Position numbers and translations under genes: made by a program
The notes under the pieces: generated by a model
The model's input: the letters and a program-made list of their open reading frames with translations, nothing else
What the model was told of the DNA's origin: nothing
Databases searched by the model: none
Part shown: in pieces, positions 5,918 through 55,962 of the stretch
Layout: every line of letters starts with the position of its first letter
How positions within the stretch are numbered: position 1 is the first letter of the stretch
Assembly: GCA_040772005.1 (NCBI GenBank)
Contig: JAXGYZ010000003.1
Location: 130,131 to 194,130, forward strand
DNA from: Anaerolineae bacterium
GTDB lineage: Bacteria > Chloroflexota > Anaerolineae > CG2-30-64-16
Reading direction: 5' to 3'
Length of the DNA: 64,000 bases

Positions 5918-8875
5918 CTACTGCTCTGCCGGCGCATCCTTCGGATGGCCCAACGCGCCCAGGGTCATGGACGCGCCGCCGAGCACCGTCAGGCAGATGG
6001 CCGCCTCGAAGATGAACGAGGTGCTGAGTGCGAAGCCCCTCGGCAGCGGCAGCCCGAGCATCTTACCATAGTCGAGGTTGGCAAAAAACGAGCCGGTCAG
6101 TACGGCGGCCAGGACGGCATCCAGGATGACGAGCAGCAGTCCCGCACCGATAAGAGTGAAGGGCCGCAACCACGGCAACTGCCGCCGTGTTTCTTCGTAG
6201 CCGAACACCACGTACCAGAACGCGATGGCCAGGCTGATGATGACGCCCGCGGTGAAGCCGTCGCCGGCCTGGTCATGGCCGTACATCATCTGCACCGAGC
6301 CCAGAATCAGCGTCACCGGCAGCAAGACATGCGCCAGGACCCGTACGAACGGTGAGGGCCGGAGCCCGCCGATGCCCATGATGCGATGATCGTGTGCTTC
6401 GTCGCCGAGGCCGTACTCGTGTTCCGGGCCGTGGGCGACGGGTTGGTCAGCGAGAATTGCGGCTGTGGGGGTTCCGGCGGCCGCGGCTGCCGGTCTGCCC
6501 TTCCCCCAATCCGCGCGGGCGGCATAGCGCAGCAGCGTATAGACGCCCAACCCTGCCAGCCCGAAGACGGCGATCTCGATGAGCGTGTCGAAGCCGCGGA
6601 AGTCGATCACGATGGCGCCCACGATGTCGGCCGCGCCGGTGAGGGGCTTGGCGTTGGCTTCGTAATACGGGGTGACGACGCTCACGCGCGGCCGGGAGGT
6701 CAACGCGACGAAGGTCAGGATCATCACGGCGAACCCGCCCGCGGCCGCAATGATGGCATCGCGCACCAGGCCGGCCCGGCTCTGCTTGAAGGTCAGCTCC
6801 CAGGCGCGACGGCGCTGTTCGCGCGGCAGGCTTGTGAGCGCCAGCACGAGGATCACCACGCTGAGGATGTCGACGACGACCTGGACGAGCGCCACGTCAG
6901 GCGCAGGCTCCAGGACCATGATGACGGCCACGCTCAACCCCGACGCGCCCAGCGCCAGGATGGCGTTGAAATCGCGGCGGAGGAAGATGCTGAGCGCGGC
7001 GGCGGCGGTCGCGAGGCCCAGGGTGAAGACGCGCAGGATCGTGAGCTCATCCAGGGTGAACGGCGGGATGGTCGTGGGCAGCGGCATGCGGCCGAACAGC
7101 AACATCAGCACGACGAGGCTGCCCAGCATCGTCGCGAGGTAGCGGCGGAGCTGGCCCGACTGGGTGCGCGTCGCGATGTAGGCGCCGCGGTCCAGCAGCC
7201 GGAGCGCGGCGGCATACCAGGCGTTGAAGCTGATCCGCTCAGGCACGCGCTGCTGCAGGGCACGCGCACGGGCGCGGAAGGTCCATAGTACCAGGCCCAG
7301 CGAGACGGCCACGATGCTCAGAATTAGCGGTGGGTTGATGCCGGTCCAGAGGGCCAGCGATACCTTGACGGTGTCGCCATAGGCGGCGGCCGCGGCGTTG
7401 GCGAAGAAGGTCGCCAGCCCCTTCGGCTCCGGCAGCAGGCCCAACGCCAGCGACAGCAGCGCCGGCACCGCGGGCATGGCGATCATCCAGCGGGGCGCTT
7501 CATGCGCGTGCACGTGGGGATCGCGCGGCCCGCCCATGAATGCCTCCCAGATCAACGTGCCGGCCTGGGCCAGGATCAGCGCGCCCGCGATCACGGCGGC
7601 AGCCGCCAGCAACGCCACGCCGGCCGGTGGGATGCTGGGGTGGGTCACGGAGGCCAGCAGCGTCTCCTTGGCCAGGAAGCCGAACATGGGCGGCAGGCCG
7701 GCCATCGAGAGGCCGGCGACGGCGCCCACGGCGAAGGTGAAGGGCATGACGCGGCGCAGGCCGCCCAGGCGGTCCAGGTCGCGCGTGCCGGCCTCGTGGT
7801 CCACGATGCCGGCGATGAGGAAGAGGGCCGACTTGTACAGCGCGTGCGCGACCACGCTGATGACCAGCGCCTTGAACGCGTTGGAGGTGTCGTCGCCGAT
7901 CAACATGACCAGGACGCCGAGCTGGCTGACGGTGGAGTAGGCCAGCAGGCTCTTCATGTCGCGCTTCTTGAGCCCGAGGTAGGCGCCGGTCAGCATCGTG
8001 AGCAGGCCGAAGCTGGTGAGGAGCCAGAACCAGGCCTCGGTGAGACCCAGTGCGGGGTTCATGCGCGCCAGCAGGTAGATGCCGGCCTTGACCATGGTCG
8101 CGGAGTGAAGATATGCGCTGGCGGGCGTGGGCGCGGTCATGGCATCGGGCAGCCAGATGTGCGCCGGAACCTGCGCGCTCTTGGTGAACGCGCCGAACGC
8201 GACCAGGCCGAGCATTATGCCATAGACCGGGCTGCTGCGCAGGACGTCACCGCTCCGGAGGATGGTGGCGTAGTCCATGCCGCCGGCGGTCGCGCCGACA
8301 AAGAGGAGCCCGGCCAGCAGTGCGATCCCGCCGCCGCCGGTGATGAACAGGGACTTGAACGCGCCCCGGCGTGCGGCCTCGTCCTTATATTTGTACGCAA
8401 TCAGCAGGAACGAGGCGAGGCTGGTGCCCTCCCAGAAGACGAACAGGGTGATGACATCGCCGGCCAGCAGCACGCCCAGCATCATGGTCATGAACAGGAA
8501 CAGGTAGGCCAGGAAACGCCACGCGCTGTTATCGCCCTTGAAATAGTAGCCCGTGTAGACCACGACCAGCGTGCCGATGCCCGAGACCAGCAGGAGGAAG
8601 AGCGCGCTCAGGTTGTCGAAGTAGAGGCTCGCGGCCATCCCGAGCGACGGCATCCAATCCACGGTGAGCGTCAGCGCGCGGCCGTCGGTCATGGCCGGCA
8701 GGCGGCTGAGGAAGAAGATGAAGGCGGCCAGCGGTAAGCTCGCCAGCAGCCAGGCAGTCCGGGTGATGCTCAGGCGGCGGTTGAGCGCAGGATGGCCGTA
8801 ACCCGCGGCCAGCAGTGCGCCGGCCAGGGTCAATATGAGGGGGAGGAAAAGCCACGGGTCGTGCATGTGCGCCAT
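5918..8875 (-). CDS. mrpA: Mrp antiporter subunit A (MnhA) with fused MrpB-like C-terminal domain
   Basis: ORF 5918..8902; likely start is the ATG at 8873-8875 (MAHMHDPW...). Carries NuoL-like motifs ([41 protein letters not shown]) and a long C-terminal extension typical of MrpA. Confidence 0.85.
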   Translation of the reverse strand: MAHMHDPWLFLPLILTLAGALLAAGYGHPALNRRLSITRTAWLLASLPLAAFIFFLSRLPAMTDGRALTLTVDWMPSLGMAASLYFDNLSALFLLLVSGIGTLVVVYTGYYFKGDNSAWRFLAYLFLFMTMMLGVLLAGDVITLFVFWEGTSLASFLLIAYKYKDEAARRGAFKSLFITGGGGIALLAGLLFVGATAGGMDYATILRSGDVLRSSPVYGIMLGLVAFGAFTKSAQVPAHIWLPDAMTAPTPASAYLHSATMVKAGIYLLARMNPALGLTEAWFWLLTSFGLLTMLTGAYLGLKKRDMKSLLAYSTVSQLGVLVMLIGDDTSNAFKALVISVVAHALYKSALFLIAGIVDHEAGTRDLDRLGGLRRVMPFTFAVGAVAGLSMAGLPPMFGFLAKETLLASVTHPSIPPAGVALLAAAAVIAGALILAQAGTLIWEAFMGGPRDPHVHAHEAPRWMIAMPAVPALLSLALGLLPEPKGLATFFANAAAAAYGDTVKVSLALWTGINPPLILSIVAVSLGLVLWTFRARARALQQRVPERISFNAWYAAALRLLDRGAYIATRTQSGQLRRYLATMLGSLVVLMLLFGRMPLPTTIPPFTLDELTILRVFTLGLATAAAALSIFLRRDFNAILALGASGLSVAVIMVLEPAPDVALVQVVVDILSVVILVLALTSLPREQRRRAWELTFKQSRAGLVRDAIIAAAGGFAVMILTFVALTSRPRVSVVTPYYEANAKPLTGAADIVGAIVIDFRGFDTLIEIAVFGLAGLGVYTLLRYAARADWGKGRPAAAAAGTPTAAILADQPVAHGPEHEYGLGDEAHDHRIMGIGGLRPSPFVRVLAHVLLPVTLILGSVQMMYGHDQAGDGFTAGVIISLAIAFWYVVFGYEETRRQLPWLRPFTLIGAGLLLVILDAVLAAVLTGSFFANLDYGKMLGLPLPRGFALSTSFIFEAAICLTVLGGASMTLGALGHPKDAPAEQ

Positions 8876-8984
8876 TCTACACGAAGAATCGATGGACGCC
8901 AAAGGAACACCCGCCCCAGGGTCAGCAGGAGATAGAGGGCAATCCCGAGGATGCCCTGGAGATAGCGTCTGGTGTTCTGGGGCA

Positions 8985-10451
8985 TCACTTCCTCGCTCTC
9001 AGGGCGGACCGGGCCGCGTGATAGCCGCACATGCCATGGACGCCGCCGCCGGGCGGGGTGGAGGCCGAACACAGGTAGATGCCGGCCGCAGGGGTGGCGT
9101 ATGGGTCGCGGCTGAGGACCGGCCGGGCGAAGAACTGCGGCAGGTCCTGCGCGCCGCCAATCACATCGCCGCCCACGTAGTTGGGGTTGTAGGCCTCGAA
9201 GTCCGCCGGCGCCATGACGTGCCGCGCGAGGATGCGCGCCTTGAAGCCGGGCGCGAACCGCTCCACCTGGGCCTCGATGCGTTCGACCATCTCATGTTGT
9301 GACACGGCGTCGTGCGCGCTGTGCAGGTTAGGGACATGGCAATAGGCCCAGGCCGTATGTTTGCCCGCCGGTGCGCGGGTCGGGTCGAAGAGGCTCGGCT
9401 GGGTCAAGATGAGGTAGGGCTGTTCGGGGTGCGAGCCGTGCCACGCCGCCCGTTCCGAGCGTGCCATCTCGGCCAGCGTGCCGCCGAGGTGCACGGTGCC
9501 GGCGGCCCGGCATTCGGCCGTACGCCAGGGGATCGGGCCATCCAGCGCCCAGTCGAGCTTGAATGCGGCCGGGCCGTGGCGATAGCGCGCCAGCTTGCGC
9601 CGGTACGCATAGGGCAGGCGCTCGCCCGCGATGCGGACCAGGTTGATAGGACTGACGTCGAAGAGGTAAGCGCTGGCCCGCGGCAGGTCCGCGAACGAGG
9701 CGACGGGCCGCGCCGTCTCGATCTGGCCGCCCAGGTCGCGCAGGTACGCGGCCAGGGCATCGGCAATGGCCTGCGAGCCGCCCTGCGCGATAGGCCAACC
9801 GACCGCGTGCCCGGCCATGCCCAGGACGAGGCCGTACGCGGCGCTGGCCGGCCGTTCGAGCGGCAGAATCGAGTGGGCGGCGATGCCGGCGAACAGGGCG
9901 CGGGCGCGTTCGCTGCGAAACCAGAGCCGCGCCAGGAGAGTGGCCGGCAGCAGGGCCTGGATTCCGAACCAGATAAAGGCCAAGGGGGAGCGGGGCAGCA
10001 GCGGCAGCGGTCCGAGTAAATCCTCCGTCACGGCAGACCAGCGCCGCACCAGCGGACCCATCAGCCGTCCGTAGGCCGCGGCATCGCGGCCCAGGCCCGC
10101 GGCTGTGGCGGCCACCGAGCGGTCCAGCACGACCGCGGTGCCATCGTCCAGCGGGTGCGCCAGGGGCAGGGGCGGCTCGATCCAGCGCAGCCCGTAGCGG
10201 TCCAGCGGCAGGTCCCGGAAGAAGGGCGACGAGAGGCCGAGCGGATGCACGGCGGAACAGACGTCGTGGCGGAAGCCGGGCAGAGTCATCCCGGTCGTGC
10301 GCGTGCCCCCGCCGACCGTGGGGGCGGCTTCGAGCACCCGCACCGCGCGGCCCGCGCGCGCCAGCGTGACGGCCGCGGCCAGTCCGTTCGGCCCTGCGCC
10401 GATGACGACGGCGTCGTAAACGACGGCGTCGTAGGCAGATGACGGAGGCAC
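8985..10451 (-). CDS. FAD/NAD(P)-binding oxidoreductase, phytoene desaturase (CrtI/CrtD) family
   Basis: N-terminal dinucleotide-binding motif [30 protein letters not shown]....GGG, 488 aa, with the overall architecture of CrtI-family amine-oxidase-like enzymes. Substrate cannot be assigned. Confidence 0.7.
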
Positions 10452-10728
10452 CTCAGATATCCTTCCTGACGCGGAGGCCGGGCAGCTTGCCTCTTACGCT
10501 CAATTCTACGATAGGGACACATGCATGTCCAGTGACACAGGGCGAAGTCATGTTGCAATCGGGCCTTCCACCTGGTAGTTGAAACTGCGGCTACCCCTAC
10601 GAAACCGGCCTACGCCGGTTAGTTCCAGTCTGCGTAGGCAGACTTCGCAAGGGTAGCCGCAACTTCAGTTGCCAGGCGGGTTCACCTGGCGCACTATGAA
10701 ACCGCCCTGCCAGTGACACGGGTGTGTT

Positions 10729-10901
10729 GGGCGCGTTTCATACTGGGGGCGAACGCGGCCAGCGCGCATACGCGAATGGCGCTGCGGCGCTGGGCACGGA
10801 TACACGAATATCCCGCCGCGGCGCACACGATTCGCGTATTCGTGGCGCGCCAGCGCATTCGTTTATCCGCGATGGCCGCGCCCCCAACGTGAAACGCACC
10901 C
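10729..10901. mobile_element. 173-bp MITE-like element, copy A, with ~12-bp terminal inverted repeats and a 9-bp target-site duplication GGGTGTGTT
   Basis: Near-identical (2-3 mismatches) to 36026..36198. Its ends are GGGCGCGTTTCAT...GTGAAACGCACCC, which form the TIRs. It is flanked by direct repeats GGGTGTGTT at 10720-10728 and 10902-10910, which differ from the flanks of copy B. Confidence 0.75.
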
Positions 10902-10981
10902 GGGTGTGTTTTCGCACACTGACGACAGGAAGCGCGGGCACAGCGGCGCACGGCCCCATCGTATAAAATCACCGGCACTGA

Positions 10982-12205
10982 TTGGATAAGGTGAAGAGAC
11001 GGATGAAGCACTTAGAAATATTTCCAATGTTGATGCTGGTCGCCGTACTGGCTATCGGGTGCAGCACGGGCGCGGCGCAGGAGCCGCCCACGGCCGCGCC
11101 GGTGGCGGCCGTCAGCGCGACGCCGGCAGCCACCGCGACGCCGCAGCCGCCCACGGCAACGGCCACCATGGCCGCGAGCGCTACGCCTGCACCGACAGAG
11201 ACGCCCACCAGCACGCCGACTGCGACAGCGTCACCCACCGTCACGGCGACGCCCAGCCCGACGCCTACGCCGCTGCACCCGCTGATGATCGAAGTGATGC
11301 GGCAGGGGGAGTACCCCGGCAGCGATATCGTCATCGAGCAGGTACTCCAGCCCGGCGCGAACTACCAGCGTTACCTGGCGTCGTACCTGTCCGAGGGGCT
11401 CAAGATCTACGCGCTCCTGACGGTTCCTAACGGAACTGGTCCTAACGGCGAGAAGCCCGCGACCGGCTGGCCCGCAGTCATCTTCAACCACGGTTATATT
11501 CCGCCCGCGCAGTACCGGACGACGGAGCGCTATGTCGCGTATGTCGATGCCTTTGCGCGCAGCGGGTACATCGTCTTCCGGCCCGACTACCGCGGGCACG
11601 GCAATTCGGAGGGCGAGGCGGAGGGCGGCTACGGCTCACCCGGCTACACGATCGACGTGCTGAACGCGGTCGGGTCGGTGAAGCGCTACGCGGACGCAGA
11701 CCCGGACCGCATCGGCATGTGGGGCCACTCGATGGGCGGCCACATCACGCTGCGCGCGATGGTGACGACGTCCGACATCAGGGCGGGCGTCATCTGGGCG
11801 GGCGTGATTGCCTCCTACCCGGACATGATGAACAACTGGCGGCGGCCAAGCAGCGCCCCGCCGCTCAACATCCCGGAGCGGCAGCGGCGCTGGCGGCAGG
11901 AACTGACCGACACCTACGGCACGCCGGAGGAGAACCCGGCCTTCTGGGCGACCATCTCACCCGCCAACTACCTGGCAGACCTGTCCGGCCCGGTCCAGCT
12001 GCACCACGGGACCGGGGATGTCGAGGTGCCGGTCGAGTTCTCGCGCGATGTGTACCAGCAGGCGCAGGACGAGGGGATCGGCATGCCGGTCGAGTATTAC
12101 GAGTACGCGGGCGACAATCACAACCTGTCGAACAACCTGGGCCTGGCCCTGCAGCGGTCGGTGGCGTTCTTCGACCGGTATGTGAAGAACGCGGGCGGGG
12201 AGTAG
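10982..12205 (+). CDS. Secreted lipoprotein alpha/beta hydrolase (prolyl oligopeptidase/dienelactone hydrolase-like, S9 family) with Pro/Thr/Ala-rich linker
   Basis: Signal peptide with lipobox (LAIGCSTG), low-complexity PTA-rich linker, then a hydrolase fold with nucleophile elbow GHSMGG and later HHGTGD. Confidence 0.7.
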   Translation: MDKVKRRMKHLEIFPMLMLVAVLAIGCSTGAAQEPPTAAPVAAVSATPAATATPQPPTATATMAASATPAPTETPTSTPTATASPTVTATPSPTPTPLHPLMIEVMRQGEYPGSDIVIEQVLQPGANYQRYLASYLSEGLKIYALLTVPNGTGPNGEKPATGWPAVIFNHGYIPPAQYRTTERYVAYVDAFARSGYIVFRPDYRGHGNSEGEAEGGYGSPGYTIDVLNAVGSVKRYADADPDRIGMWGHSMGGHITLRAMVTTSDIRAGVIWAGVIASYPDMMNNWRRPSSAPPLNIPERQRRWRQELTDTYGTPEENPAFWATISPANYLADLSGPVQLHHGTGDVEVPVEFSRDVYQQAQDEGIGMPVEYYEYAGDNHNLSNNLGLALQRSVAFFDRYVKNAGGE

Positions 12206-12217
12206 GGGGCGCGGCCG

Positions 12218-12298
12218 TCGTCAACGAATGGGGCAACGAATGAACGAATGGCCGTGCCGGACGAGGATTCGTTCATTCGTGGCGTGATTCGTTGACGG
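12218..12298. terminator. Nested inverted-repeat hairpin between convergent genes (hydrolase + / cgs -). Probable bidirectional terminator related to the ATTCG-rich repeat family
   Basis: CGAATGAACGAAT (12237-12249) pairs with ATTCGTTCATTCG (12267-12279). An outer pair TCAACGAATGG / CGTTGACGG adds a further stem. The element overlaps the cgs stop codon. Confidence 0.45.
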
Positions 12299-15200
12299 CC
12301 GCGCTGACGACGTCCACCCGGTGCTCCGCACCGTCATCGTGCAGTTCGACGAGGTTTCCGGCCAGCGGCCGGCCGTCCACGGTGATGGTCGGGGCGGCCG
12401 AGCTCCCGTCACGGCGCACCTGGATGTGATAGGTGGCCGAGCCGTGGCGGTAGGTGGCCTCGAAGCCGGGCCAATCCGGCGGGATGCAGGGGTCGATCTG
12501 CAGGCCGCCCGCTGTCCGGCGGAGACCGAGGATGCCCTCAATCCCCAGGCGATACATCCAGGCCGCGGAGCCGGTGTACCACGTCCAACCGCCCCGGCCC
12601 GTATGGGGCGCGACGCTGTAGACATCGGCGGCAATCACGTAAGGCTCGACCTTGTACCGGTCCACGGCGGCCGCGGTGTCCGCATGGAGGACCGGGTTGA
12701 GCAGCCGGAAGAGCCTCTCGGCGGTGGCTGCGCGGCCGAGCTCGAGATACGCCCAGGTCGTCCAGATGGCAGCATGGGTATACTGGCCTCCGTTCTCGCG
12801 CGTGCCGGGCACGTAGCCCTTGATATAGCCTGGGTCATGCGGCGTCTGGTCGAAGGGCGGGGTGAACAGCAGGAGCAAGCGGTCCTCAGCGCGTACCAGG
12901 CGCTCCAGCACGGCATCCATCGCCCGGCCCGTTCGGACAGGATCGCCGGCCCCGGACAGCACGGACCACGATTGCGCGATGGCGTCGATCTGGCACTCGC
13001 TGTCCGAGCCCGAGCCCAGCGGCGTGCCGTCATCGTAGTAGGCCCGCAGGTACCAGTCGCCATCCCAGCCGTGCGCCTCCAGCGCCTCCTGCAATGCGGC
13101 GGCCTGCTCGCGGTAGGCGACGCCCTGGGCTGCATCGCCGCGCGCCTCGCACACGGCTGCAAAGCGCACGAGCGTTGCGTGCAAGAACCACCCGAGCCAG
13201 ATGCTCTCGCCCCGGCCCTCGACGCCGACGCGATTCATGCCGTCGTTCCAGTCGCCGCTCCCCATCAGCGGCAGGCCATGCCCGCCGGCCGTGTGCCCGC
13301 GTTCGAGCGCGCGGCGGCAGTGGTCGTACAGCGTCCCCTGGAAGGTCGTGGACGCATACTCGCCGTAACGATCGTCTTCGCCCTCTGCGAGCGGCGGCGC
13401 TTGCAGGAAGGGCACTCGTTCGTCCAGGATGGACAGGTCGCCGGTGGCCTCGATGTAGTGGGCTGTGACGTAGGGCAGCCACAGCAGGTCATCGGAGCAG
13501 CGGGTGCGCACCCCGCGGCCTGACGGCGGGTGCCACCAATGCAGTACGTCGCCGTCCTCGAACTGGCGGCCGGCCGCGTTGAGGATGTGCGCGCGGGCCA
13601 GGTGGGGCGCGGCATGGACCGCGGCCATAACGTCCTGCAACTGGTCGCGGAAGCCGAACGCGCCGCTCGACTGATAGAAGCCCGAACGCCCCCAGATGCG
13701 GCAGGCGAGGCTCTGGTACAGCAGCCAGCGGTTCAGCAGCAGGTCCATGCTCGGTTCAGGCGTCCGGACCTGCACGGCGTCCAGCAGGCCGTCCCAGAAA
13801 CCGTGCACGGCCTGCCAAGCCTGCTCGACTGCGTCTCCGTCCTGGTAGCGGCACGCCAGCGCGAGGGCCTCGGCGCGGTCTGCGCCCTGGCCGAGCAGGA
13901 ACCACACTTCGTCGCTGCCGCCCGGCGGCAGGTCGATGTGTACCTGCAGGGCTGCGCAGGGGTCGAGGCCGGCCTGGATCGTGCCGCTCAGGCCGATGCG
14001 CTGCAGCGCGGCCGGGCACCCGAGCGTCCCGTGCCGGCCGAGAAACTCCGCGCGATCTGCTGTCAGGCCGTGCAGCCGCCGGCTCGGCGCGGCGAACGCC
14101 ACCCGCTCGCCGAACTCGGGATACCACGGATTGCGGGCCAGCAGTGCCTGGCTATCGTCGTCGAAGTCGGGGATGACGAATTGCGCGGTGGCGGCGCGAC
14201 TCGTGCCGAGCAGCCATTCCGCATAAAAGGTGGCGGTGATGCGCCGCGGCCGCTCCGTGGCATTCTCCAGGCGCAGATGGACGATCTTCACCGCCGCGTC
14301 AGGCGGCACGAAGAGACGCAGGCGCTGGCGCAGCCCGTGGCTGTGATGCTCGAAGGTCGTGTAGCCCGCGCCGTGACGCACGAGGTAGGGCTGGTCGGCG
14401 CCCGCGGGCTGCGGCGTGGGCGTCCAGACTTCTGCGGTCTCCTCATCGCGCAGGTACAGCGCCTCGCCCGGCGGGTCGGTCACGGGGTCGTTCGACCAGG
14501 GGGTCAGCCGGTTCTCGCCGCTGTTCAGCGCCCAGGTGTAGCCGCCGCCCGATTCCGAGACGAGGAAGCCGAACGCGGGGTTGGCCACGACGTTGACCCA
14601 CGGCACAGGCGTCGGATGTGGCGGGTCAAGGTAGATGACGTATTCCCTGCCGTCAGGACTGAAGCCGCCCAGCCCGTTATCGAAGGCGAGGTCCGCCGGC
14701 CGCATGACCGGCGGGAGGGGCGGCCCGGCCTGCTCCGGCACAGGGGTCGGCGCAAAGGCGGGCAACGGCGCGGGCTGTTGGCCCAGTCGCGCCAGCGTGC
14801 CGGCCAGGTTCCCCGCATCCGCATCCAGGATCACGCGCGCCGTCGTCTGCAGGAGAGTGTTGGCCGCCTCGTTCAACTGGTGGGCATAGAGCAGGAAGAT
14901 GCCGCCGCGCTGATTGAGCCAGACGTCGCTATCCATGCGTGTGAGCAGCCGCTGAATCTGGTCGCGCAGCCCCTGGTCATAGCCAGCCAACTGCGTGTTG
15001 AGGATCACCAGGTCGATCATCAGGCCGCGCTTGCGCCAGTAAGCATGGGCGCGCAGCAGTTCGCGCACGAACCCCAGCGCTTCTTCTTCCGCGATGCGCA
15101 CGAGGAGCAGCGGATAGTCGCCCGAGATGCCATGAGCCCACAGGTCGGGTTGGCCCCGTGTGTTAGCCTGCAGGACCTCCGGCTCGGCCCGGAGCCCATG

Positions 15201-21955: not shown

Positions 21956-22189
21956 AATAGTACCTCCTCACCCGCTTCGGGGTCTTCTGCCTGAGTGTTC
22001 AGGCAACCCCGACCGTAACACGGTGCCTCCTTGCCAGGTTGATAGGTTTCCTGGCCAACCTACGCAGAGTGTCGCTTGCCGTTGGGCAAGGCAGAGATCA
22101 GGGCGCGGCCGCAACGATTATGCACCGTTGCTGGGCCATCTATCATCTTATCTGGTTTGCAGGGTTGATGCGGTAAGCTTGCTTGCGTT

Positions 22190-22320
22190 GGGAGGTGAGG
22201 GAGGGGCCATCGCGAATATGCGAATGGGGCTCCGGCGCTGGGAGCGCATACGCGAAGTGCCGTGCCAGGAGAGGATTCGGTTATTCGTGTGCCATTCGGT
22301 TATTCGAGATGGCCGCCCAG
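22190..22320. repeat. Degenerate relative of the MITE/ATTCG-rich repeat family
   Basis: Segments ...GCATACGCGAAGTGCCG...GATTCGGTTATTCGTGTGCCATTCGGTTATTCGAGATGGCCGCCC share the ATTCG repeats and the ATGGCCGC block with the 173-bp MITE. Confidence 0.4.
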
Positions 22321-22328
22321 CAAGTCTC

Positions 22329-23408
22329 CTATCGCAGCGCCTTTGCGACCGCTGCGGCGCGGCTGTCCACGTCGAGCTTCTCGAAGATGGCCTTGAGGTA
22401 GCGCTTGACGGTGTTCTCCGAAATGACCATTGCGCGGGCGATGCCCTTGTTGGTGAGGCCCTGCACCAGCAGGTCGAGCACCTCCCGCTCGCGGCGGGTC
22501 AGCCGGGCGACCTCGCCGCGGCCCGCGCGGCCGGCCGAGGTGGCCTCCTGCACGGCGGTGACGAAGCCGCTGCGCTCGAAGCGCTGCTTCTCCAGGCACG
22601 CGAAGACCGCGAACTCGCTGTAGAGCCGCTCCAGGTCGGCGGGGGTCGCCAGCCCGCTCACGACGATGGCCGGGATGCCGGCGGCTTTCGCCTCCCGCAG
22701 CACCTCGAAGCCGTCGCGGTTGGCCCCCGCGGCCAGCGAGTTCGCGAGCGACAGGTCTGCGACGACCAGGCTGTGCTTCTCCCGCCGCAGGTGGCCGAGC
22801 GCCTCACCATAGCTGAGGCACGCGTGGACGGAATAGCCGGCATCCGCCAGCAGCTCCGCCAGGATCGCGCGCCAGCCCGCATCATCTTCGACCAGCAGGG
22901 CCTTGCCAGGGTGCACCGAGAGAGCCGGTGGGGGTGCAGCGGCGAGCTTTGGCGGCGTGGTGGCCCCTCTCGTTGCGGCAGCCTCGCCCCGGGCAACGGG
23001 AGGCGCAGCAACCGGGGCCTGCGCCAGCATCTCCCGGATGACCTGGCGGAACTCTGCACGGCGGAAGGCCTCCTTCCGCAGGCAGGTGTGTGCGCCGTAG
23101 CCGGTCAACACGCTGACGGCAATCTCGACCGTCGCGTAGCCGGTCAGCAGCAGCGCGACGCAGTTGGGGTCCTGGCGGCGGACGGCCTCCAGCACGCGCA
23201 GCCCGTCGCGGTCGCCTTCGTCATCGGGCCGCAGCGAGAGGTCCACCACGGCGACCCGGTGCGGCGCGGCGCGCAGGTGCGCGACCGCGGCGTCCAGGTC
23301 CGCAGCCACATCCACGGCCAGCCCCATGTCGGTCAGCAGCTCGGTCAGAATCTCCTGCCAGGCGGGGCTGTCCTCCACCACCAGTGCGCGCGGTGTAACA
23401 GACGTCAA
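22329..23408 (-). CDS. Response regulator with two receiver (REC) domains and a LuxR/FixJ-type HTH output
   Basis: Two REC cores (ALVVEDSP...VVDLSL...; ALLVEDDAG...VVADLSL...) plus a C-terminal LuxR HTH ([36 protein letters not shown]). Start is set at the TTG at 23406-23408, preceded by GGAGG. The long N-terminal extension in the ORF track overlaps the kinase gene and is rejected. Confidence 0.7.
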
Positions 23409-25399
23409 GAGGCCGCCTCCCCGTCCGCCTGCCGTGCAGCCTGCGGCAGGCGCAGGCGGAACGTCGTACCGCGGCGCCCGTCGCTCTCGACCGAGACCGC
23501 GCCGCCGAGCCGGGTCATCATCGTCTTGACCCACCAGAGCCCGAACCCCAGCCGCGACCGCGCGCTTCGGGCACCTTCGGCGCCCAGCCGACCGTCGGCC
23601 CGCCGCCGCTCGGAAAACCGGAATTCGAAGATGCGCGCCTGGTTGTCCGGCGGGATGCCCGGCCCGTCGTCGGTAATTGCCAGCTCGACCCAGTCTCCCG
23701 CTGCGGTCCCCCCAATCTGCACGACGCCCCGGCCGTTCATGGCTTCCGCCGCGTTGTCCAGCAGATTGACGATAACGAGGGCCAGCGTCTCTCGGCCCGC
23801 CAGCACCGGCGGGAGCTGATCCAGCCCGGCCGACTGCACCGCCACGCCGGGCGGCAGCCGCGCCGCGGCCAGCGCATCGGCCACGCAGCCGGCCACGCTG
23901 ACCGGCCCGGCCTCGATGGGGTGGAGCAGGGCCAGCCGGTCGCGCACGGTCGCCATCGCGTCGAGTGCGGCCCGCTCGATCTCCGCCAGGTTGGCTGCCA
24001 GGTAAGGGTTGTCCGCCAGCGCGGGCGCGCATTTGTCCTGGATGCCCTCGATGCGCACCGGGATGGTGCCGACCTTGTTGTTGAGGTGGTGGAGCAGGTT
24101 CGCGGCCACGTCGCCCATCGCGGCGAACGTCTCTGCGACTGCGCGGGCCTCCTGCGCCTCGCGCAGCGCCTCCTGCCGCGCTGCGTTGGCCCGGGCGAGG
24201 GCCTCATACTCGGCCAGGATAGCTTCGACCTTCCGATCCCACTCCGTATCGCCGCTCACCAGGTCGCCGCGCAGGGCGGCCAGGTGCGCCTGGACCTGGC
24301 TGAGGTCCTGCGTCAGTACGCGCGTCGAGGTGTCGCGCAGCGCGTCGAGCAGGCGCACTTCCTGAATGGCGATGACGGCCTGGGTCGCGAGTCCCTGCAG
24401 CAGGTGACTGTCCGCCTCGCTGAACGCGCCGGCGTGGGGGCTTTCGAGGTTCAGCACGCCTTCCAGCCGACCGCCCGCGCCGATGAGCGGCACGGCCAGC
24501 TCCGCGCGCATCTGGAGCGAGTGGTCCAGCGGGTAATAGATGCGCGACCAGGGCGGCTCGCGCACGTCCGCGATGTTGACGGGCTGGCGCGTCTTGGCCA
24601 CGAGGCCCATGATGCTCGTCGTGTTGATGGGCAGCGCCTCGACCGCAGGCCGGCCCAGCCGTTCGCCTGCAATGGCCCGCATGACGAGGTTCTGGCCGCT
24701 GCGGTCCACGAGCCGGAAGATGCCGTAGCGCGCGCCGGTGACCTCCAGCGCCATCTCGAGGATGGCAACGAGCGTGTCTTCGAGCCGGGTGCGCGAGGAG
24801 ATCAACAGGCCCGCATGGCGCAGCAGGGCCAGTTCGTCCTCCTTGCGCGCGAGGTTGCGCCGTGTGTGCGTGACCTGGCCGGCGAGGTAGAGGGCCATGG
24901 CCGCCTGTGCGACGAAGTTGTCCAGCAGGAGCAATTCGAGCTGGCTCAGCCGCCGCGCCTCCGTCAGGTAGACATAAAGGGTACCGAGCGGCTGGCCCGC
25001 CACGAGCAGCGGCAGGCAGGCTGCGGCGGCCGCCCCGGCAGACCGGCGGTCGGGATGGATGTCGAGGTCCGGCTCATCGTATGAGAGCACGGGCTGCGTG
25101 CGGCGGATGGCGCGCATCCCCAGGCCGTCCGGTCGGGGGGTCGCATCGCGGAGCAGGGCCGGGTGGTCGCCCGCCGAGGTGCGCGAGACCGGGTCCAGGC
25201 TGCTGCGGGCGGGGTCGTAGGTGTACAGGATGGCCGTCGCGCCCGGGATGATGGTGACGGCGCTCTCCGCGATGAGGCGCAGCGTCGCGTCGAGGACGGC
25301 GGGGTCGCCCAGGTTGAGCTGGTTGACCCGCCGGCCCACGTCGCGCAGTTGCGCCAGGACTGCCAACAGGCGGCGATCTTCGTCAGGCGTCACGGTCAT
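23405..25399 (-). CDS. Sensor histidine kinase with two GAF domains (HisKA_3/NarX-like dimerisation region, HATPase_c)
   Basis: 664 aa. It has GAF-like regions, then an H-box region ([13 protein letters not shown]) and an ATPase region (LLDNAAEAM...ITDDGPGIP...GFGLW). The partner is a LuxR-type regulator, consistent with the NarL/NarX class. Confidence 0.75.
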
Positions 25400-31099: not shown

Positions 31100-31176
31100 C
31101 CTCACCCCCCGGCCCCCTCTCCTGGGCGAACGCGCCCAGGAGAGGGGGAGGCGGCTGCAGGCCGCAGGGGGTGAGG
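31100..31176. repeat. REP-like nested G/C-rich palindrome (CCTCACCCCCC-GGCCCCCTCTCCTGGGCG-N4-CGCCCAGGAGAGGGGGAG...GGGGGTGAGG) at a convergent gene junction
   Basis: 16-bp perfect inner stem, outer CCTCACCCCC/GGGGGTGAGG arms, and a small GCGGCTGCAGGCCGC palindrome. Second copy at 37292-37411. Confidence 0.6.
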
Positions 31177-35522: not shown

Positions 35523-35930
35523 TCAGTAGCTGATCTTGCGGTCGAGCTGCTTGGCCTGGTCGATCCAGTCGGCGACCTGGGCTTCGGTCGGCAGGCGGCG
35601 CACCTTGCGCTCCTCCTGGTTGACTTCCACCATCTTCGCATAGAGGTTGGCCGGGTTGCGCCGCGCGAGCTCGGGGACGGTGTCCACCCCGGCGGCTTCG
35701 AGCAGGTCGGAGTATTCCTCGCCGATGCCCCGGATGCGGAATAGGTCGACCAGATTGACCCAGCGCAGGATCAGGTCTCCGCTAATGCCGGTCTTCTCTG
35801 CCAGTGCGGCGCGCTCCTTGGGTGTCGCGCCCGCGGCCAGCAACGCATCCGTCGTCTTGAGGCCGGCCTCTGCCAGCTTGGCGGTGTAAACCTTACCGAT
35901 TCCTTCAACGCTCATCAGGCTTGCCATCAT
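35523..35930 (-). CDS. DUF4332-like helix-hairpin-helix domain protein
   Basis: 135 aa. Two HhH-like motifs (VEGIGKVYTAKLAEAGLKT; IRGIGEEYSDLLEAAGVDT). Confidence 0.5.
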   Translation of the reverse strand: MMASLMSVEGIGKVYTAKLAEAGLKTTDALLAAGATPKERAALAEKTGISGDLILRWVNLVDLFRIRGIGEEYSDLLEAAGVDTVPELARRNPANLYAKMVEVNQEERKVRRLPTEAQVADWIDQAKQLDRKISY

Positions 35931-36025
35931 GTGCCTCCTGTAGAAAGGGGTGAAACAATTAACGCATACCTCAAGCCTTATCCTAGCACATGAATGTTAC
36001 GCTGCCAATAACCGGCAATGGGTGA

Positions 36026-36198
36026 GGGCGCGTTTCATACTGGAGGCGAACGCGGCCAGCGCGCATACGCGAATGGCGCTGCGGCGCTGGGCACGGATAC
36101 ACGAATATCCCGCCGCGGCGCCCACGATTCGCGTATTCGTGGCGCGCCAGCGCATTCGTTTATCCGCGATGGCCGCGCCCCCAACGTGAAACGCACCC
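36026..36198. mobile_element. 173-bp MITE-like element, copy B, with 9-bp target-site duplication AATGGGTGA
   Basis: Near-identical to 10729-10901. Flanked by AATGGGTGA at 36017-36025 and 36199-36207. No transposase is encoded. Confidence 0.75.
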
Positions 36199-36233
36199 AA
36201 TGGGTGACGACTGACCAGGAATACCGACGTAGT

Positions 36234-36303
36234 GGAGTCGAGGCTTCAGCCGGTTTGGGAGTGTACGAGCGTTCACTGTGTAATCGGCTCAAGCCTCGAC
36301 TCC
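36234..36303. repeat. Long-hairpin repeat family 2 (GGAGTCGAGGCTTCAGCCGGTT ... ATCGGCTCAAGCCTCGACTCC), copy 1
   Basis: ~19-bp inverted arms with one mismatch and a ~30-nt loop. Related copies at 60474-60561 (complete) and 55767-55789 (left arm only). Confidence 0.6.
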
Positions 36304-36463
36304 AACCTGCGGCAAGACGGCTGCGCTTCGGATTCCTGGACGCTCAACTCGATGACTTGTCGCGACGGGGATGATGCGTTATCATCTACCGTGCCCGCCG
36401 TGGTGCAATCGAGATGTCACGGCGCGGTGTAATGCTGAATTTGCGCAGGATGGAGTCTTCCTC

Positions 36464-37291: not shown

Positions 37292-37411
37292 CCTCACCCC
37301 CCAACCCCCTCTCCTGGGCGCATACGCCCAGGAGAGGGGGAGCCGATGACTTCAAACCTACCATCTCCCCCTCTCCTGAACGAGTTCAGGCGAGGGGGCC
37401 GGGGGGTGAGG
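37292..37411. repeat. REP-like nested G/C-rich palindrome, copy 2 (with an extra CCCCCTCTCCTGAACGAGTTCAGGCGAGGGGG hairpin)
   Basis: CCTCACCCCCCAACCCCCTCTCCTGGGCG-CATA-CGCCCAGGAGAGGGGGAG ... GGGGGGTGAGG. Sits between convergent genes (hypothetical + / ogl -). Confidence 0.6.
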
Positions 37412-44623: not shown

Positions 44624-46690
44624 ATGAAACAGCGAATGATCACACGACGTGAGTTCCTGCGGCTGTCTGCGATGGGCGCCGTAGGAGCAGCGGCGGCGGC
44701 CTGCGGCGGACAGCAGACGCCGGCCCCCGCGGCCGAACCGACGGCTGCACCCGCAGCCGAACCGACCGCCGCACCTGCCGCGGAGCCGACGGCCGTCCCC
44801 GAGGCCGTCAAGGCCACTGAAGCGCCCGTCGCGGCCGCGGGCAAGTACCAGGAAGCGCCCATGCTGGCCGAACTGGTCCAGGCGGGCTCGCTCCCGCCGG
44901 TCGATGAGCGGCTGCCCATCAACCCCGCCATCATGGAGAGCTACGAGGGCATCGGTAACTACGGCGGCAACTGGCGCCGCGGCTTCAAGGGCGTGTCCGA
45001 CCGCTGGGGGCCGACCAAGCTGGTGGACCGCAACTGGGCCTGGTTCGACAAGGATCTCAACCTCCAGCCGCGCCTGATGGAGTCCTGGCAGGTCTCCGAC
45101 GATGGCCGCGAGTGGACCATCAAGCTGCGCGAGGGCACCAAGTGGTCCGACGGCACCGAGTTCACTACGGACGACTTCGCGTTCTGGTACGAACACGAAC
45201 TGCAGAACAAGAAGGTCAACGCCAGCCTGCCCACCGTGTGGCGCTCGGATGCCGAGACGCCGGTCGAGTTCACTGCGGTCGACAAGTACACGGCCAAGTT
45301 CGCCTTCACGAAGCCCAAGCCGATGCTGATCTACTACAATACGCGCGGCGGCATGGGCGGGCCGATGACCCCCAGCCACTACATGAGGAAGTTCCACGAG
45401 GACACCACCGACGACAAGGCGGCCATGGAAGCTGAGATCAAGGAGCGCGGCTACGACAGTTGGGAGCGCTACTACATCGACTACAAGTCGTGGTGGTACA
45501 TGGATCCCAACAAGCCGGTCCTGAGCCCCTGGCTGGCAAAGGGTGAGCTCTCCACCGAGCTCTTCATCATGGAGCGCAACCCCTACTTCTTCGCCGTGGA
45601 CCCGGAGGGCAAACAATTGCCCTATATCGACACCGTCACGCATCGCCTGTTCGAGTCGGATGAGGTGCTCAACCTGTGGCTGACCAACGGCGAGATCGAC
45701 ATGCAGGCCCGGCACCTGAGCCTCGCCAACCTGGCCCTCTATAAGAGCGGCGAGGAGAAGGGCGATTACGCGACGATTCTGGCCATCCATGCGAGCCACA
45801 TCGCCATGCAGATTAACCATAGCTGCAAGAATCCGCAGCTCTACGAGCTGTTCAACGATCTCAAGGTGCGGCAGGCCATGAACGCGGCGATCAACCGTGA
45901 AGAGGTCAACGAGCTCATCTTCAACGGCATGCTCAAGCCGCGGCAATACAGCCCGCTGCCTATGTCGCCGCAGTACTACGAGAAGGCCGAGAAGGCCTGG
46001 ATCGAGTATGACCCCGACCTGGCGAACCAGTTGATGGACGAGGCCGGCTACACCGAGAAAGATGCGCAGGGCTTCCGCCTGTTCAAGGACGGCAGCGGCC
46101 CGATCACCTTCATCATCGAAGGCACCGATCAGACCGGCACGCCCACCGAGGATGCGGTCCTGCTCGTGAGCAGCTACCTGGAGAAGATCGGCATCAAGGC
46201 CACCTACAAGTACTCGGAGCGCGCGCTCTACACCGAGCACTACGAGGCCAACGAGATCGAGGCGGCCTGGTGGGGCGGCGACCGCACGGTGCTGCCGCTC
46301 GTGCCGGAGGCCATCATCTTCCGCGGCGTCCAGCCGGACCGGCCGTGGTGCCCGGGCTGGGGCTTCTTCTACACCGACCCGACCAACCCCGCCGCGGTCG
46401 AGCCGCCGGCCGACCACTGGATCCGGGACATCTGGAAGATCTGGGACGAGGAGATCGTCGTCGAGGTCGATCCTGAAAAGCAGACCGCGGCCTTCAAGAA
46501 GATCCTGGACATCTGGGCCGAGCAGCTGCCCATGATCGGCGTCCTGGGCGAGCAGCCGACACCGACCATCGTCAAGAACGGCTTCAAGGGCTACCCGCCC
46601 GGTATGCCGAACGACGACACCACCGGCGACGAGCAGTTCTGCCAGAGCGAGACGTACTACTGGGACGATCCGACGAAGCATACGATGTAG
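44624..46690 (+). CDS. ABC transporter substrate-binding protein, family 5 (Opp/Dpp-type), Tat signal
   Basis: Twin-arginine leader (TRREFLRLSAMGAVGAAAAACGG), Ala/Pro/Thr linker, and 688-aa SBP_bac_5 architecture. RBS AAGGAGG. Confidence 0.85.
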   Translation: MKQRMITRREFLRLSAMGAVGAAAAACGGQQTPAPAAEPTAAPAAEPTAAPAAEPTAVPEAVKATEAPVAAAGKYQEAPMLAELVQAGSLPPVDERLPINPAIMESYEGIGNYGGNWRRGFKGVSDRWGPTKLVDRNWAWFDKDLNLQPRLMESWQVSDDGREWTIKLREGTKWSDGTEFTTDDFAFWYEHELQNKKVNASLPTVWRSDAETPVEFTAVDKYTAKFAFTKPKPMLIYYNTRGGMGGPMTPSHYMRKFHEDTTDDKAAMEAEIKERGYDSWERYYIDYKSWWYMDPNKPVLSPWLAKGELSTELFIMERNPYFFAVDPEGKQLPYIDTVTHRLFESDEVLNLWLTNGEIDMQARHLSLANLALYKSGEEKGDYATILAIHASHIAMQINHSCKNPQLYELFNDLKVRQAMNAAINREEVNELIFNGMLKPRQYSPLPMSPQYYEKAEKAWIEYDPDLANQLMDEAGYTEKDAQGFRLFKDGSGPITFIIEGTDQTGTPTEDAVLLVSSYLEKIGIKATYKYSERALYTEHYEANEIEAAWWGGDRTVLPLVPEAIIFRGVQPDRPWCPGWGFFYTDPTNPAAVEPPADHWIRDIWKIWDEEIVVEVDPEKQTAAFKKILDIWAEQLPMIGVLGEQPTPTIVKNGFKGYPPGMPNDDTTGDEQFCQSETYYWDDPTKHTM

Positions 46691-46694
46691 AACC

Positions 46695-46811
46695 GATTGA
46701 AGATTGCAGATTGAAGATTGAAGATTGGCCAGAGGTGGTGGATTGAGGATTCGTGTAATCTTCAAGCCGGGAGAAGTGTAGCTTCGCACATCTTCAATTT
46801 TCAATCTGCAA
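46695..46811. repeat. Heptamer tandem repeat (GATTGAA/GAAGATT x4-5) with inverted copies downstream. Intercistronic stem-loop element between the SBP and permease genes
   Basis: Direct units GATTGAAGATTGCAGATTGAAGATTGAAGATTGG at 46695-46728. Inverted units AATCTTCAAG at 46757-46766 and CATCTTCAATTTTCAATCTGCAA at 46789-46811. Confidence 0.6.
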
Positions 46812-51983: not shown

Positions 51984-52003
51984 AGATTGAAGATTGAAGA
52001 TTT
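51971..52003. repeat. Heptamer tandem repeat (GATTGAA x3-4) overlapping the radical SAM stop codon
   Basis: GATTACAGATTGAAGATTGAAGATTGAAGATTT. The TGA stop lies within the first unit. Confidence 0.6.
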
Positions 52004-52031
52004 CGACTCAAGGCTTCCCTGAGGGAGGGTC

Positions 52032-54608: not shown

Positions 54609-55730
54609 ATGCCCATCATCGAGCCTGAGTTCATGGCGCTGACCGCGGGCCTCGACGTCGAGGCGTGGTGGGCCGAGAACGAGGCCTGCCAGCGGCCCGG
54701 TACCGACAAGCCGCGCTGCCCGGCCTCCTTCTCGCCCGACGACCACTGGATCTTCGAGTTCATGGCCGTGCCGTCGACGCTGCGCTACTATCACGACACG
54801 GATTACCGCAACGCGCTGCACGCGGAGGTTAACGCGCTCACCCGCGCGCACGTGGGCCGCGCATTCTTCGATGAGGACACCTGGCGCACGACGCCGAAAC
54901 GTATCGAGAACCTGTTCGGCTGCGAGTTCGGCTATCATGAGGGCAGCACGCCCTGGCTCACGCCGGTCACGGACGACCCGGACGAGTTCGCGCGTGTCCT
55001 CGACCGCGCAGAGGCGACCGACCTGCGGACGTGGAGCCTGCCCGAGGACTACCTGGCGGAATGGGATGAGCGCAAGGCCGCGGGCAAGCTGCTGCCCAAG
55101 CTCGGCACGGGGAGCCGCGGGCCGGCGACCATCATGACCTCGGTGCTTAAGCCGGAGACGGTGTTCTACTGGCTCTACGACCACCCGGACCTGATGCGGC
55201 GGTTCCGCGACGTGCTGGCCGTCAAGATGGTGGCGTTCAATCGCATCCTGCGCGAGTTCAGCGGGAACGACGAGCCCGGTTGGTGGATCACGGACGACAA
55301 CTGCGCACTGTTCAATCGGCGGCTGTACCGGGAGTACTGCTACCCGGTGCTGGAGCAGGTGCTGGCCGCGCTTGCGCCTGGCGATGCGCGACGCTACCAG
55401 CACTCGGACAGCGCGATGGGCCACCTGCTGGAATTGCAGTATGCGCTCGGCATCCGCGACGTCAACTACGGGCCGACGGTCGACGCCGCGCTCATCCGCG
55501 AGCGGATGCCCGACGCGATCATCAACGGGCAGATGCCGCCCATGCTGCTGCGCAACGGCAGCCCCGAGGCAATCCGGGCGCGCGTCGTGGAGGACTTCGC
55601 CAAGGCGGGCGGCACGGGGCTGCTCAACGTGACGACGGCCGGCTCGCTGGCCGCGGGCACGGGTCTCGGCCGGATGCGCTGGTTCATGCAGACGGTGCAG
55701 GAGTGCTGCCGGTACGACGTGACAGGGTGA
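54609..55730 (+). CDS. Uroporphyrinogen decarboxylase (URO-D)/MtaA-like family protein
   Basis: 373 aa. TIM-barrel-like URO-D family resemblance. Paralogous in its C-terminal half to the protein at 61879-63018 (…GDITLAEMVERVEP / …DVNYGPTVDAALIRERMP…). Start is 3 nt after the previous stop. Confidence 0.45.
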   Translation: MPIIEPEFMALTAGLDVEAWWAENEACQRPGTDKPRCPASFSPDDHWIFEFMAVPSTLRYYHDTDYRNALHAEVNALTRAHVGRAFFDEDTWRTTPKRIENLFGCEFGYHEGSTPWLTPVTDDPDEFARVLDRAEATDLRTWSLPEDYLAEWDERKAAGKLLPKLGTGSRGPATIMTSVLKPETVFYWLYDHPDLMRRFRDVLAVKMVAFNRILREFSGNDEPGWWITDDNCALFNRRLYREYCYPVLEQVLAALAPGDARRYQHSDSAMGHLLELQYALGIRDVNYGPTVDAALIRERMPDAIINGQMPPMLLRNGSPEAIRARVVEDFAKAGGTGLLNVTTAGSLAAGTGLGRMRWFMQTVQECCRYDVTG

Positions 55731-55764
55731 CAAGGTGACAGGGTGAACAGGTGAACAGGTGATG
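55719..55764. repeat. Octamer tandem repeat (GTGACAGG/GTGAACAG x5) overlapping the end of the URO-D-like CDS
   Basis: GTGACAGGGTGACAAGGTGACAGGGTGAACAGGTGAACAGGTGATG. Confidence 0.5.
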
Positions 55765-55766
55765 TT

Positions 55767-55789
55767 GGAGTCAAGGCTTTAGCCGGTTT
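55767..55789. repeat. Partial copy (left arm only) of long-hairpin repeat family 2
   Basis: GGAGTCAAGGCTTTAGCCGGTTT matches the left arm of 36234-36303 and 60474-60561. There is no matching right arm. Confidence 0.45.
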
Positions 55790-55839: not shown

Positions 55840-55930
55840 CCTCGCCCAAGGCGGAGTGGTGAACGGGCGACATAGCGATCACGGTATTCGCGTATTCGGG
55901 GTCGCCATTCGATTATTCGCGATGGCCGCG
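55840..55930. repeat. Degenerate relative of the MITE/ATTCG-rich repeat family upstream of the GH4 gene
   Basis: ...CGGTATTCGCGTATTCGGGGTCGCCATTCGATTATTCGCGATGGCCGCGGCCCCCTAC shares the ATTCGCGTATTCG and ATTCG(N)TTAT(T)CGCGATGGCCGCG(N)CCCCC blocks with the 173-bp MITE. Confidence 0.45.
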
Positions 55931-55962
55931 GCCCCCTACAGAACATCAAGGGAGGCATTGCA

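Follow-up and report, generated by a model that had tools for sequence, protein, structure and literature searches.

Two near-identical 173-bp sequences in a 64,000-nt stretch of contig JAXGYZ010000003.1 (hereafter the window), from an uncultured Anaerolineae/Caldilineae-type Chloroflexota bacterium, very probably represent a miniature inverted-repeat transposable element (MITE) that owes its movement to a trans-acting DDE transposase from the ISKra4 group (p-MULT 4, prokaryotic Mutator-like) encoded elsewhere in the genome. Copies A (10729-10901) and B (36026-36198) have the anatomy of a MITE and are bordered by the 9-bp duplications of a staggered cut, and copy B is a true insertion. The family shares its termini with ISKra4-type insertion sequences (ISs) and lies 16 ± 1 nt (range 14-17) from predicted sigma-70-like promoters.

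Copies A and B differ at two positions (position 19, G/A; position 97, A/C), where an earlier model reading of the letters without database searches (the sequence-only reading) had given two to three. Both start with GGGCGCGTTTCAT and finish with GTGAAACGCACCC, an 11/13 inverted match, and the terminal inverted repeat (TIR) is actually 23 nt long, matching at 19 of 23 positions; the conserved 23-bp terminus has the consensus GGGYGCGTTTCAYRYTGGGGGCG. Each copy stands between two perfect copies of its own 9-bp direct repeat, GGGTGTGTT for A and AATGGGTGA for B (Table 1). Beyond these repeats the flanks of the two copies are unrelated, and identity ends precisely at the TIR ends. Since it stops exactly at the direct repeats, and since the two 9-mers differ, the copies are not part of a segmental duplication. 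The sequence-only reading had described this arrangement of two near-identical copies, imperfect TIRs and distinct 9-bp target-site duplications (TSDs), and had named identical flanks as the sign of a larger duplication; the arrangement is borne out at the coordinates it gave, and the flanks differ.

The element is an imperfect palindrome throughout, with 71% identity to its own reverse complement, and its predicted RNA fold has a minimum free energy (MFE) of -106.9 kcal/mol (z = -6.6) that none of 200 shuffles equalled, which confirms the self-complementary interior noted earlier. The G+C content of the window is 67%. Coding capacity is nil, the open reading frames (ORFs) of the element being spurious frames over the palindrome, and a Rfam gathering scan and a tRNA scan of the window returned no match. 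Structurally, then, this is a small non-coding sequence with TIRs, TSDs of constant length specific to each site and, for copy B, a precise empty site. Its description as a non-autonomous MITE holds, with TIRs and 9-bp TSDs present and no transposase detected by tblastn in the element or the window. Two copies were observed in the 64-kb window and two on separate contigs (L002 and L003) of the metagenome-assembled genome (MAG) R69_164.

Empty sites in related strains, a check suggested by the sequence-only reading, were sought on contigs that encode close homologues of the first gene past copy B on its downstream side, and they were found precisely for this copy. At locus L083 (GCA_020047475.1, ~90-92% nt identity), the target reads ...GCTGCCAATAACCGGCAATGGGTGACGACTGACCAGG..., with one AATGGGTGA, and the sequence on either side is colinear with the window. 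Locus L084, from MAG R69_164, in which the MITE is present at two other sites, has one AACGGGTGA at the B site, again between colinear flanks, and the MITE is likewise absent at this site in L085. The single 9-mer in the uninterrupted target of the relatives therefore identifies copy B as an insertion with a 9-bp duplication, one whose presence or absence is polymorphic among relatives.

The spacer beside copy B is a hot spot for small repeats. In a comparison of the L083-L086 spacers, L084 and L085 carry different small hairpin elements at the same position. A palindromic repeat family (GAGTCGAGGCTTCAGCCGGTT...AACCGGCTGAAGCCTCGACTCC) occurs beside copy B in the window, at 36234-36303, as well as at 60539-60581 and ~55762-55790.

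The termini recur well beyond this genome. A scan of a genome collection with GGGYGCGTTTCAYRYTGGRGGCG returned six loci, each from a Chloroflexota MAG (of Caldilineaceae, Anaerolineae or Anaerolineales). Two of them are further copies of the 173-bp MITE, L003 (99.4% identical, TSD GCCGTGTGC) and L002 (94% identical, flanked by GCGTCATAT and GCATCATAT), and at the remaining four the same 23-nt end is attached to very different interiors. When metagenome contigs were scanned less strictly, 69 loci came up, with ~43 unique true-family ends. Complete small elements with these ends include at least five further MITE variants with unrelated cores, of 100, 151, 206, 214 and 251/252 bp (the last at two sites), all with a 9-bp TSD. 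Every variant core outfolds its shuffles (z -4.5 to -10.5), and BLAST found no core common to the variants, or to other repeats in the window, at E <= 1e-4. The same 23-nt end is thus joined to unrelated hairpin cores, and it follows that the end is a conserved functional module and the interior interchangeable. The duplication is perfect for both window copies and for L003, L014, L047, L041, L053 and L036, and has one mismatch at L001, L002 and L060; the consistent TIR and TSD structure on which the sequence-only reading had staked its claim is therefore kept in copies from Chloroflexota MAGs and metagenomes. A position weight matrix (PWM) of the termini, built from 24 family ends all taken from outside the window, picked out the ends of copy A at 35.6 and 32.3 bits and all four MITE ends at 32-36 bits, with the next-best site in the window at 9.6. 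No transposase lies beside the single-end matches L001 and L005, the former being another MITE variant and the latter an element with no recognisable second end.

The family ends also bound autonomous elements. Five ISs of 1.44-1.46 kb (L036, L013, L016, L076 and L077) have GGGNGYRTTTCA...TGGGGGCG ends and ORFs matching NF033572. The L036 element (1013-2475; 1463 bp) has the family ends, a perfect 9-bp TSD (AGTTACGCA) and three ORF pieces that are colinear on the NCBIfam profile NF033572, 'ISKra4 family transposase' (profile positions 16-104, 96-178 and 230-406), and score 32.6, 25.8 and 153.8 bits, a sum of ~212 against a cutoff of 205. The second-best NCBIfam match of these ORFs is ISLre2, and the sole Pfam match, to UPF0236, is weak. 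The other autonomous copies comprise L013 (84% DNA identity to L036), L016 (53% amino acid identity), L076 and L077. In L077 the ORF is unbroken (453 aa), and the duplication is 9 bp long (CCGGCAGCC) provided that the terminal C is counted on both sides. The protein search returned >2889 homologues, one of which (P0117) is named ISKra4 family transposase [Anaerolineales bacterium]. The stop codon of the IS transposase sits within the right repeat (...CCCCTAAACTGAAA...), and the right end of the MITE, GGCCGCGCCCCCAACGTGAAACGCACCC, resembles that of the IS, GGCCGCGCCCCTAAACTGAAAGGCGCCC, across ~28 nt.

These properties agree with what has been published for the ISKra4 group, prokaryotic Mutator-like elements with 18-39-bp inverted repeats ending in C and 8-9-bp direct repeats (Guerillot et al. 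2014, PMC3942029). In table entries of the supplement to that study, group ends finish ...TGCACCC or ...CGCACCC with 9-bp direct repeats, and the entries for ISAcce1 (...AAATGCACCC), ISCasp2 (...GCCGCACCC) and ISAcas3 (...CTACGCCC) all list a direct repeat of 9. Because the same 23-nt ends bound ISKra4-family ISs, the element is assigned to the ISKra4 group and not to IS1595 or ISL3. The sequence-only reading had proposed an IS1595-, ISL3- or IS256-type partner; the first two are not supported, since the transposases of autonomous elements that share the 23-bp ends are of the ISKra4 family, and IS256, which is the wrong family, belongs to the right superfamily, both being Mutator-like (PMC3942029).

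In the closest ISKra4-type ISs (L013, 69-1504; L016, 140-1577 minus; L036, 1013-2475; L076, 2109-3544), the transposase is split in two ORFs. ORF1 (Zn-ribbon, ...YYYCDHCRVGLFP) overlaps ORF2 (LDRQL..., the catalytic part) in the +1 frame. The overlap site, C-TTT-TTC-CCC-CTG-GA(T/C) at ~nt 395-415 of each element, is conserved, and single-ORF relatives read ...G(L/S)FPLD.QL uninterrupted at the slip-site position. Database homologues at 58-92% identity are mostly ORF2-only, at 313-350 aa. To judge by these sequences, the split is less suggestive of decay than of a conserved site of programmed +1 frameshifting (CCC_C) or slippage.

Members of this family also sit at a fixed distance from predicted promoters. 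For 15 complete elements (30 flanks), TTGACA-16/18-TATAAT was scored at offsets 0-49 from the element end. Sites with at least 8 of 12 matches occurred only at offsets 14-17 (1, 2, 8 and 3 hits, 14 in total, peaking at offset 16), with none at the other 46 offsets. Among the 43 unique family ends, there were 12 hits at offsets 14-17 versus 7 across the 46 remaining offsets, and 27 non-family (chance or coding) matches to the pattern gave none. Examples include TTGACA-17-TATCTT (L002), TTGAAA-17-TATGAT (L001), TTGAAA-17-TATATT (L014), TTGACT-17-TACAAT (L060) and TAGACA-18-TACAAT (L076), together with sites of 11/12 matches at L037 and L050. Copy B lies upstream of a predicted promoter of a DUF4332 gene (Table 1), and this promoter block is the same in the empty-site relatives L083, L084 and L085, with a variable leader sequence. 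A number of ISKra4-group elements, Ktedonobacter ISs among them, have a predicted sigma-A promoter 13-17 bp from the inverted-repeat junction on either side (PMC3942029), and by the consensus scan of predicted promoters the present family shares this trait. In all four of the 173-bp copies for which a promoter was seen (A, B, L003 and L002), the GGGCGCGTTTCATACTGG end faces the promoter, which is suggestive but not significant. An intrinsic-terminator scan around the two window copies (10400-11100 and 35850-36450), which did not cover the three hairpin-related loci described below, found no sites.

Copy A requires a more elaborate account. The sole promoter-like site in 10400-11100 is TGGACA-17-TAGAAT (10531..10503, minus strand), ~190 bp from copy A, and between the two lies a second, degenerate 172-bp element (10538-10709). 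Its ends, CAGGGCGAAGTCATGTTGC and, reverse-complemented, CAGGGCGGTTTCATAGTGC, resemble the family end with a 1-nt gap (CAGGGCG...CGCCCTG), and it is flanked by a 9-bp direct repeat, CCAGTGACA (10529-10537 and 10710-10718). When this element and one repeat are removed, the left end of copy A falls exactly 16 nt from TGGACA (10/12 promoter matches). The relative L081 lacks the region of the 172-bp element. The simplest history would have copy A arriving first, by a canonical insertion upstream of the oxidoreductase promoter, and the 172-bp element following later. This order of events is supported by the element's own direct repeat and TIR-like ends; it is inferred, because the element is single-copy and stands off the spacing rule.

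Several observations weigh against our interpretation. In the present sequence, no promoter lies at the canonical distance from copy A, whose fit depends on the element at 10538-10709 being a later insertion. That element occurs only once in the data examined, has no empty site and itself lies 6 nt from the -35 box, off the spacing rule. The site of copy A in the 91% relative L081 lacks the MITE, and the spacer there is too diverged to give a precise junction. All of the family promoters are predicted, as matches to a sigma-70-like consensus. Of the autonomous copies, L013, L016 and L076 have no matching TSD, and tblastn with the family transposase found neither a transposase gene nor an autonomous copy in the 64-kb window. 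Activity of an ISKra4 transposase on these ends is, for its part, suggested by the shared termini.

Two observations concern insertion sites of this kind. At L080 (95% nt identity), synteny with the window is kept to ~10493 (L080 ~1219), after which other upstream genes follow (STAS and a 249-aa ORF), and this rearrangement breakpoint falls inside the repeat-rich spacer containing copy A. At L002, the flank just past the 9-bp duplication (~1215-1241) has the TIR-like sequence GGGCGGGGTTCAGTTTGGAG, a hint that insertions may occur side by side or serially at one promoter, comparable to 10529-10728 in the window.

Alternative explanations account for parts of these data. Duplications of 9 bp are not unique to ISKra4 among the ISfinder families, and ISAs1 ends start with CAGGG, as does the neighbouring element at 10538-10709, so that a MITE of another family that duplicates 8-10 bp (IS256, IS1595, ISL3, IS4/IS10, IS903 or ISAs1) might be considered. 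We regard this as very unlikely, given that every autonomous element found with these 23-nt ends belongs to the ISKra4 family, with NF033572 the best match and ISLre2 the next, that scans of the partner ORFs against NCBIfam and Pfam returned ISKra4, ISLre2, Mbov_0401 and UPF0236 only, with no IS256, IS1595, ISL3 or IS4, and that a fixed promoter spacing is a published trait of ISKra4, ISLre2 and TnGBS which IS256 lacks. Promoter adjacency could alternatively reflect survivorship, insertions persisting only in harmless, promoter-rich intergenic DNA without any targeting. All surviving copies are indeed intergenic, and selection against gene disruption certainly acts; however, survivorship predicts a broad spread of distances and not a ±1-nt peak at offset 16 while 46 other offsets have no site at all, and the same spacing has been published independently for ISKra4-group ISs and for TnGBS, which makes survivorship by itself a very improbable explanation.

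The very stable hairpin (z = -6.6), the TIR-less hairpin relatives at gene 3' ends and the abundance of palindromic repeats in the window would also be expected of a REP/BIME-like palindrome or a structured small-RNA gene that had been duplicated, spread by a RAYT-type enzyme or by recombination. REPs, however, are 20-40 bp long and make no target duplication, whereas the present element is 173 bp long, shows perfect 9-bp TSDs at 10 or more independent sites, has precise empty sites, ends in the same termini as transposase-bearing ISs and lacks an Rfam match. The probability of this alternative is accordingly slight in the extreme, and transcription of the MITE, if any, would be secondary. That the copies belong to a larger segmental duplication, or are an assembly artefact, is suggested by their near-identity and nothing further. 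Identity stops at the TIR ends, the 9-mers differ per copy, and near-identical copies occupy other sites in independent assemblies (L003, L002 and L019), which leaves this explanation with a negligible chance of being correct. Mobilisation of a MITE by an ISKra4-group transposase is thus the interpretation that we favour.

Comparison with known systems places the element among Mutator-like transposons. With the ISKra4 group (ISKra2/4/5/6, ISAcce1 and ISCasp2), which occurs in Chloroflexi, it shares ends in ...GCACCC or ...GCGCCC, inverted repeats within the 18-39-bp range, 9-bp direct repeats and insertion 13-17 bp from sigma-A promoters on either side. It differs in being 173 bp long and non-coding, with a hairpin interior unrelated to the IS except for ~28 nt at the ends, and its closest autonomous relatives have their transposase in two +1-overlapping ORFs. 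Elements of the TnGBS/ISLre2 type are likewise DDE elements of Mutator-like type, with 8-9-bp duplications and insertion sites 15-17 bp upstream of the -35 box, but they belong to another transposase clade, are large or autonomous and insert in one orientation only. The MITEs and Pack-MULEs derived from eukaryotic Mutator-like elements (MULEs) are non-autonomous members of the same superfamily, with 9-bp TSDs, varied interiors enclosed by conserved TIRs and a preference for gene 5' ends; in contrast, they have much longer TIRs, gene-fragment cargo and chromatin-based targeting instead of a fixed distance to the -35 box. Correia/NEMIS (Neisseria), ERIC/IRU, RUP and BOX repeats resemble the element in size (100-200 bp), TIRs, foldable interior, intergenic position and the capacity to affect expression of neighbours, and differ in having other TIRs and TSDs (TA for Correia), other or unknown transposases and no fixed promoter spacing. 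REP/BIME sequences and their RAYT are extragenic palindromes often located at gene ends, as are the TIR-less relatives here, but they lack a TIR-plus-TSD architecture, are much shorter and move by a Y1 transposase mechanism.

In the mechanism that we propose, an ISKra4-type transposase would bind the 23-nt ends, excise or copy the element, probably via the circular intermediate described for bacterial Mutator-like elements (PMC3942029), and be guided to promoter-upstream DNA, so that promoter and coding sequence would both be left intact. The hairpin core would be cargo that differs per MITE variant and always folds strongly, transposition being independent of its particular sequence; it may insulate the targeted promoter or may merely be tolerated. 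A bolder version, which we consider rather doubtful, is that the transposase reads promoters directly, for example via sigma-A/RNA polymerase at the -35 box, and deposits interchangeable hairpin cassettes exactly 16 ± 1 nt upstream, the cargo acting as a mobile insulator or terminator against read-through and the TIR-less hairpins at gene 3' ends being domesticated survivors. If so, each MITE or IS junction in uncultured Chloroflexota would naturally mark a live promoter to the single nucleotide.

The analysis ties an anonymous repeat of uncultured Chloroflexota to a defined transposase family, with precise empty sites that make it a clean case of recent mobility. Non-autonomous derivatives appear to inherit the promoter-upstream targeting of ISKra4/TnGBS-type Mutator-like transposases and, since the MITEs keep it, targeting would require only the 23-nt ends and the enzyme. 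The fixed 16-nt spacing means that MITE and IS junctions can help to locate -35/-10 promoters in phyla that have no mapped promoters, and mobility of this kind explains assembly breaks and a synteny break in such intergenic regions. The two 23-nt ends also constitute a compact donor for studying promoter recognition by a bacterial transposase. A literature search found nothing specific on ISKra4-derived MITEs or on MITEs of Chloroflexi. The behaviour of the element follows from known properties of the ISKra4 family, and we regard it as a well-documented new example rather than a new kind of element.

The sequence-only reading also listed diverged relatives at three loci of the window, and here it was right about similarity to the core and not about complete elements, as neither the outer 16 nt of the TIR nor a TSD is present at any of the three, and the PWM finds no decayed TIR beside them. 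At the 22181 element, 22205-22316 aligns with the MITE core at 72% identity over 124 nt (E = 5e-12); its left flank matches 14/23 TIR positions in register (background frequency of at least 14, ~0.001) and its right flank is at chance. The locus at 12205-12305 is a strong hairpin that shares an exact GGGGGCGCGGCC with the inner TIR and core start, and its BLAST match is weak (12202-12290, E = 0.03 to 1.3). The sequence at 55886-55935 aligns at 80% identity over 56 nt (E = 3e-8) and does not fold as a hairpin (z = -1.3). It is a half-element, whereas the other two loci are strong hairpins at gene 3' ends. The other flanks of these relatives have 6-12/23 TIR matches, mostly to the inner GGGGGCG. 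Global alignment of the relatives to the entire MITE was abandoned, as cheap gaps stretched the ends artificially, and register-anchored counts and the PWM were used. The three loci may be old, immobilised derivatives, decayed or truncated, which is the most economical reading because they include part of an IS-derived repeat. An older wave of the family domesticated as terminators or promoter-proximal elements, as the sequence-only reading proposed, is not established by these data.

A one-ended copy of the 173-bp MITE was found at L019 (1371-1545). It has 97% core identity and one intact end; on the other side the sequence breaks off after ...GATGGCCGCG and a terminal repeat is missing, making it a possible intermediate towards TIR-less hairpins.

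Table 1. Positions of the MITE copies, their duplications, related hairpins and predicted promoters in the window.
Feature	Position	Strand	Remarks
MITE copy A, 173 bp	10729..10901	+	Long imperfect hairpin core enclosed by 23-nt TIRs (10729-10751 and 10879-10901)
Copy A left TSD, GGGTGTGTT	10720..10728		9-bp direct repeat
Copy A right TSD, GGGTGTGTT	10902..10910		9-bp direct repeat
MITE copy B, 173 bp	36026..36198	+	23-nt TIRs at 36026-36048 and 36176-36198; 2 differences from copy A
Copy B left TSD, AATGGGTGA	36017..36025		Single-copy empty sites in L083 and L084
Copy B right TSD, AATGGGTGA	36199..36207		9-bp direct repeat
Predicted promoter, TTGGCA-17-(TG)TAGGAT	35980..36008	-	17 nt between the start of the -35 box and copy B (left end); DUF4332 gene 35930..35523 (Pfam)
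Predicted promoter, TGGACA-17-TAGAAT	10503..10531	-	Gene for a phytoene-desaturase-like FAD-oxidoreductase, end at 8985
Second, degenerate MITE-like element, 172 bp	10538..10709	+	Wedged between the promoter and copy A; hairpin MFE -95.9
ATTCG-rich hairpin	12205..12305	+	Between convergent genes; overlaps the last codons of a 2905-aa ORF; no outer TIR, no TSD
Hairpin relative of the MITE core	22181..22316	+	Just 3' of response-regulator gene 22329..24032 (-); no TSD
Half-element, right core arm only	55886..55935	+	Upstream of the GH4 gene starting at 55963; no TIR

Other repeats were noted in the window. A 54-nt hairpin repeat (CCTCACCCCCC..CCCCCTCTCCTGGGCG...CGCCCAGGAGAGGGGGAG) occurs at gene ends at 31100-31153 and 37292-37345 (89% identity), and a motif-level look-alike is present in the core of the 252-bp MITE variant (L014), with no BLAST link at E <= 1e-4. 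Upstream of the half-element at 55886 are GGTGA(C/A)A(G)G repeats (55720-55765), and short tandem runs of GATTGAA/GATTGCA heptamer-like units are found at 46680-46740 and 51970-52016. Finally, many repeat pairs of 64-77% identity link ~1200-2800 with ~7300-8900 at a constant offset of 6069 bp, and these indicate two paralogous tandem gene clusters for Mrp-type cation/proton antiporters.

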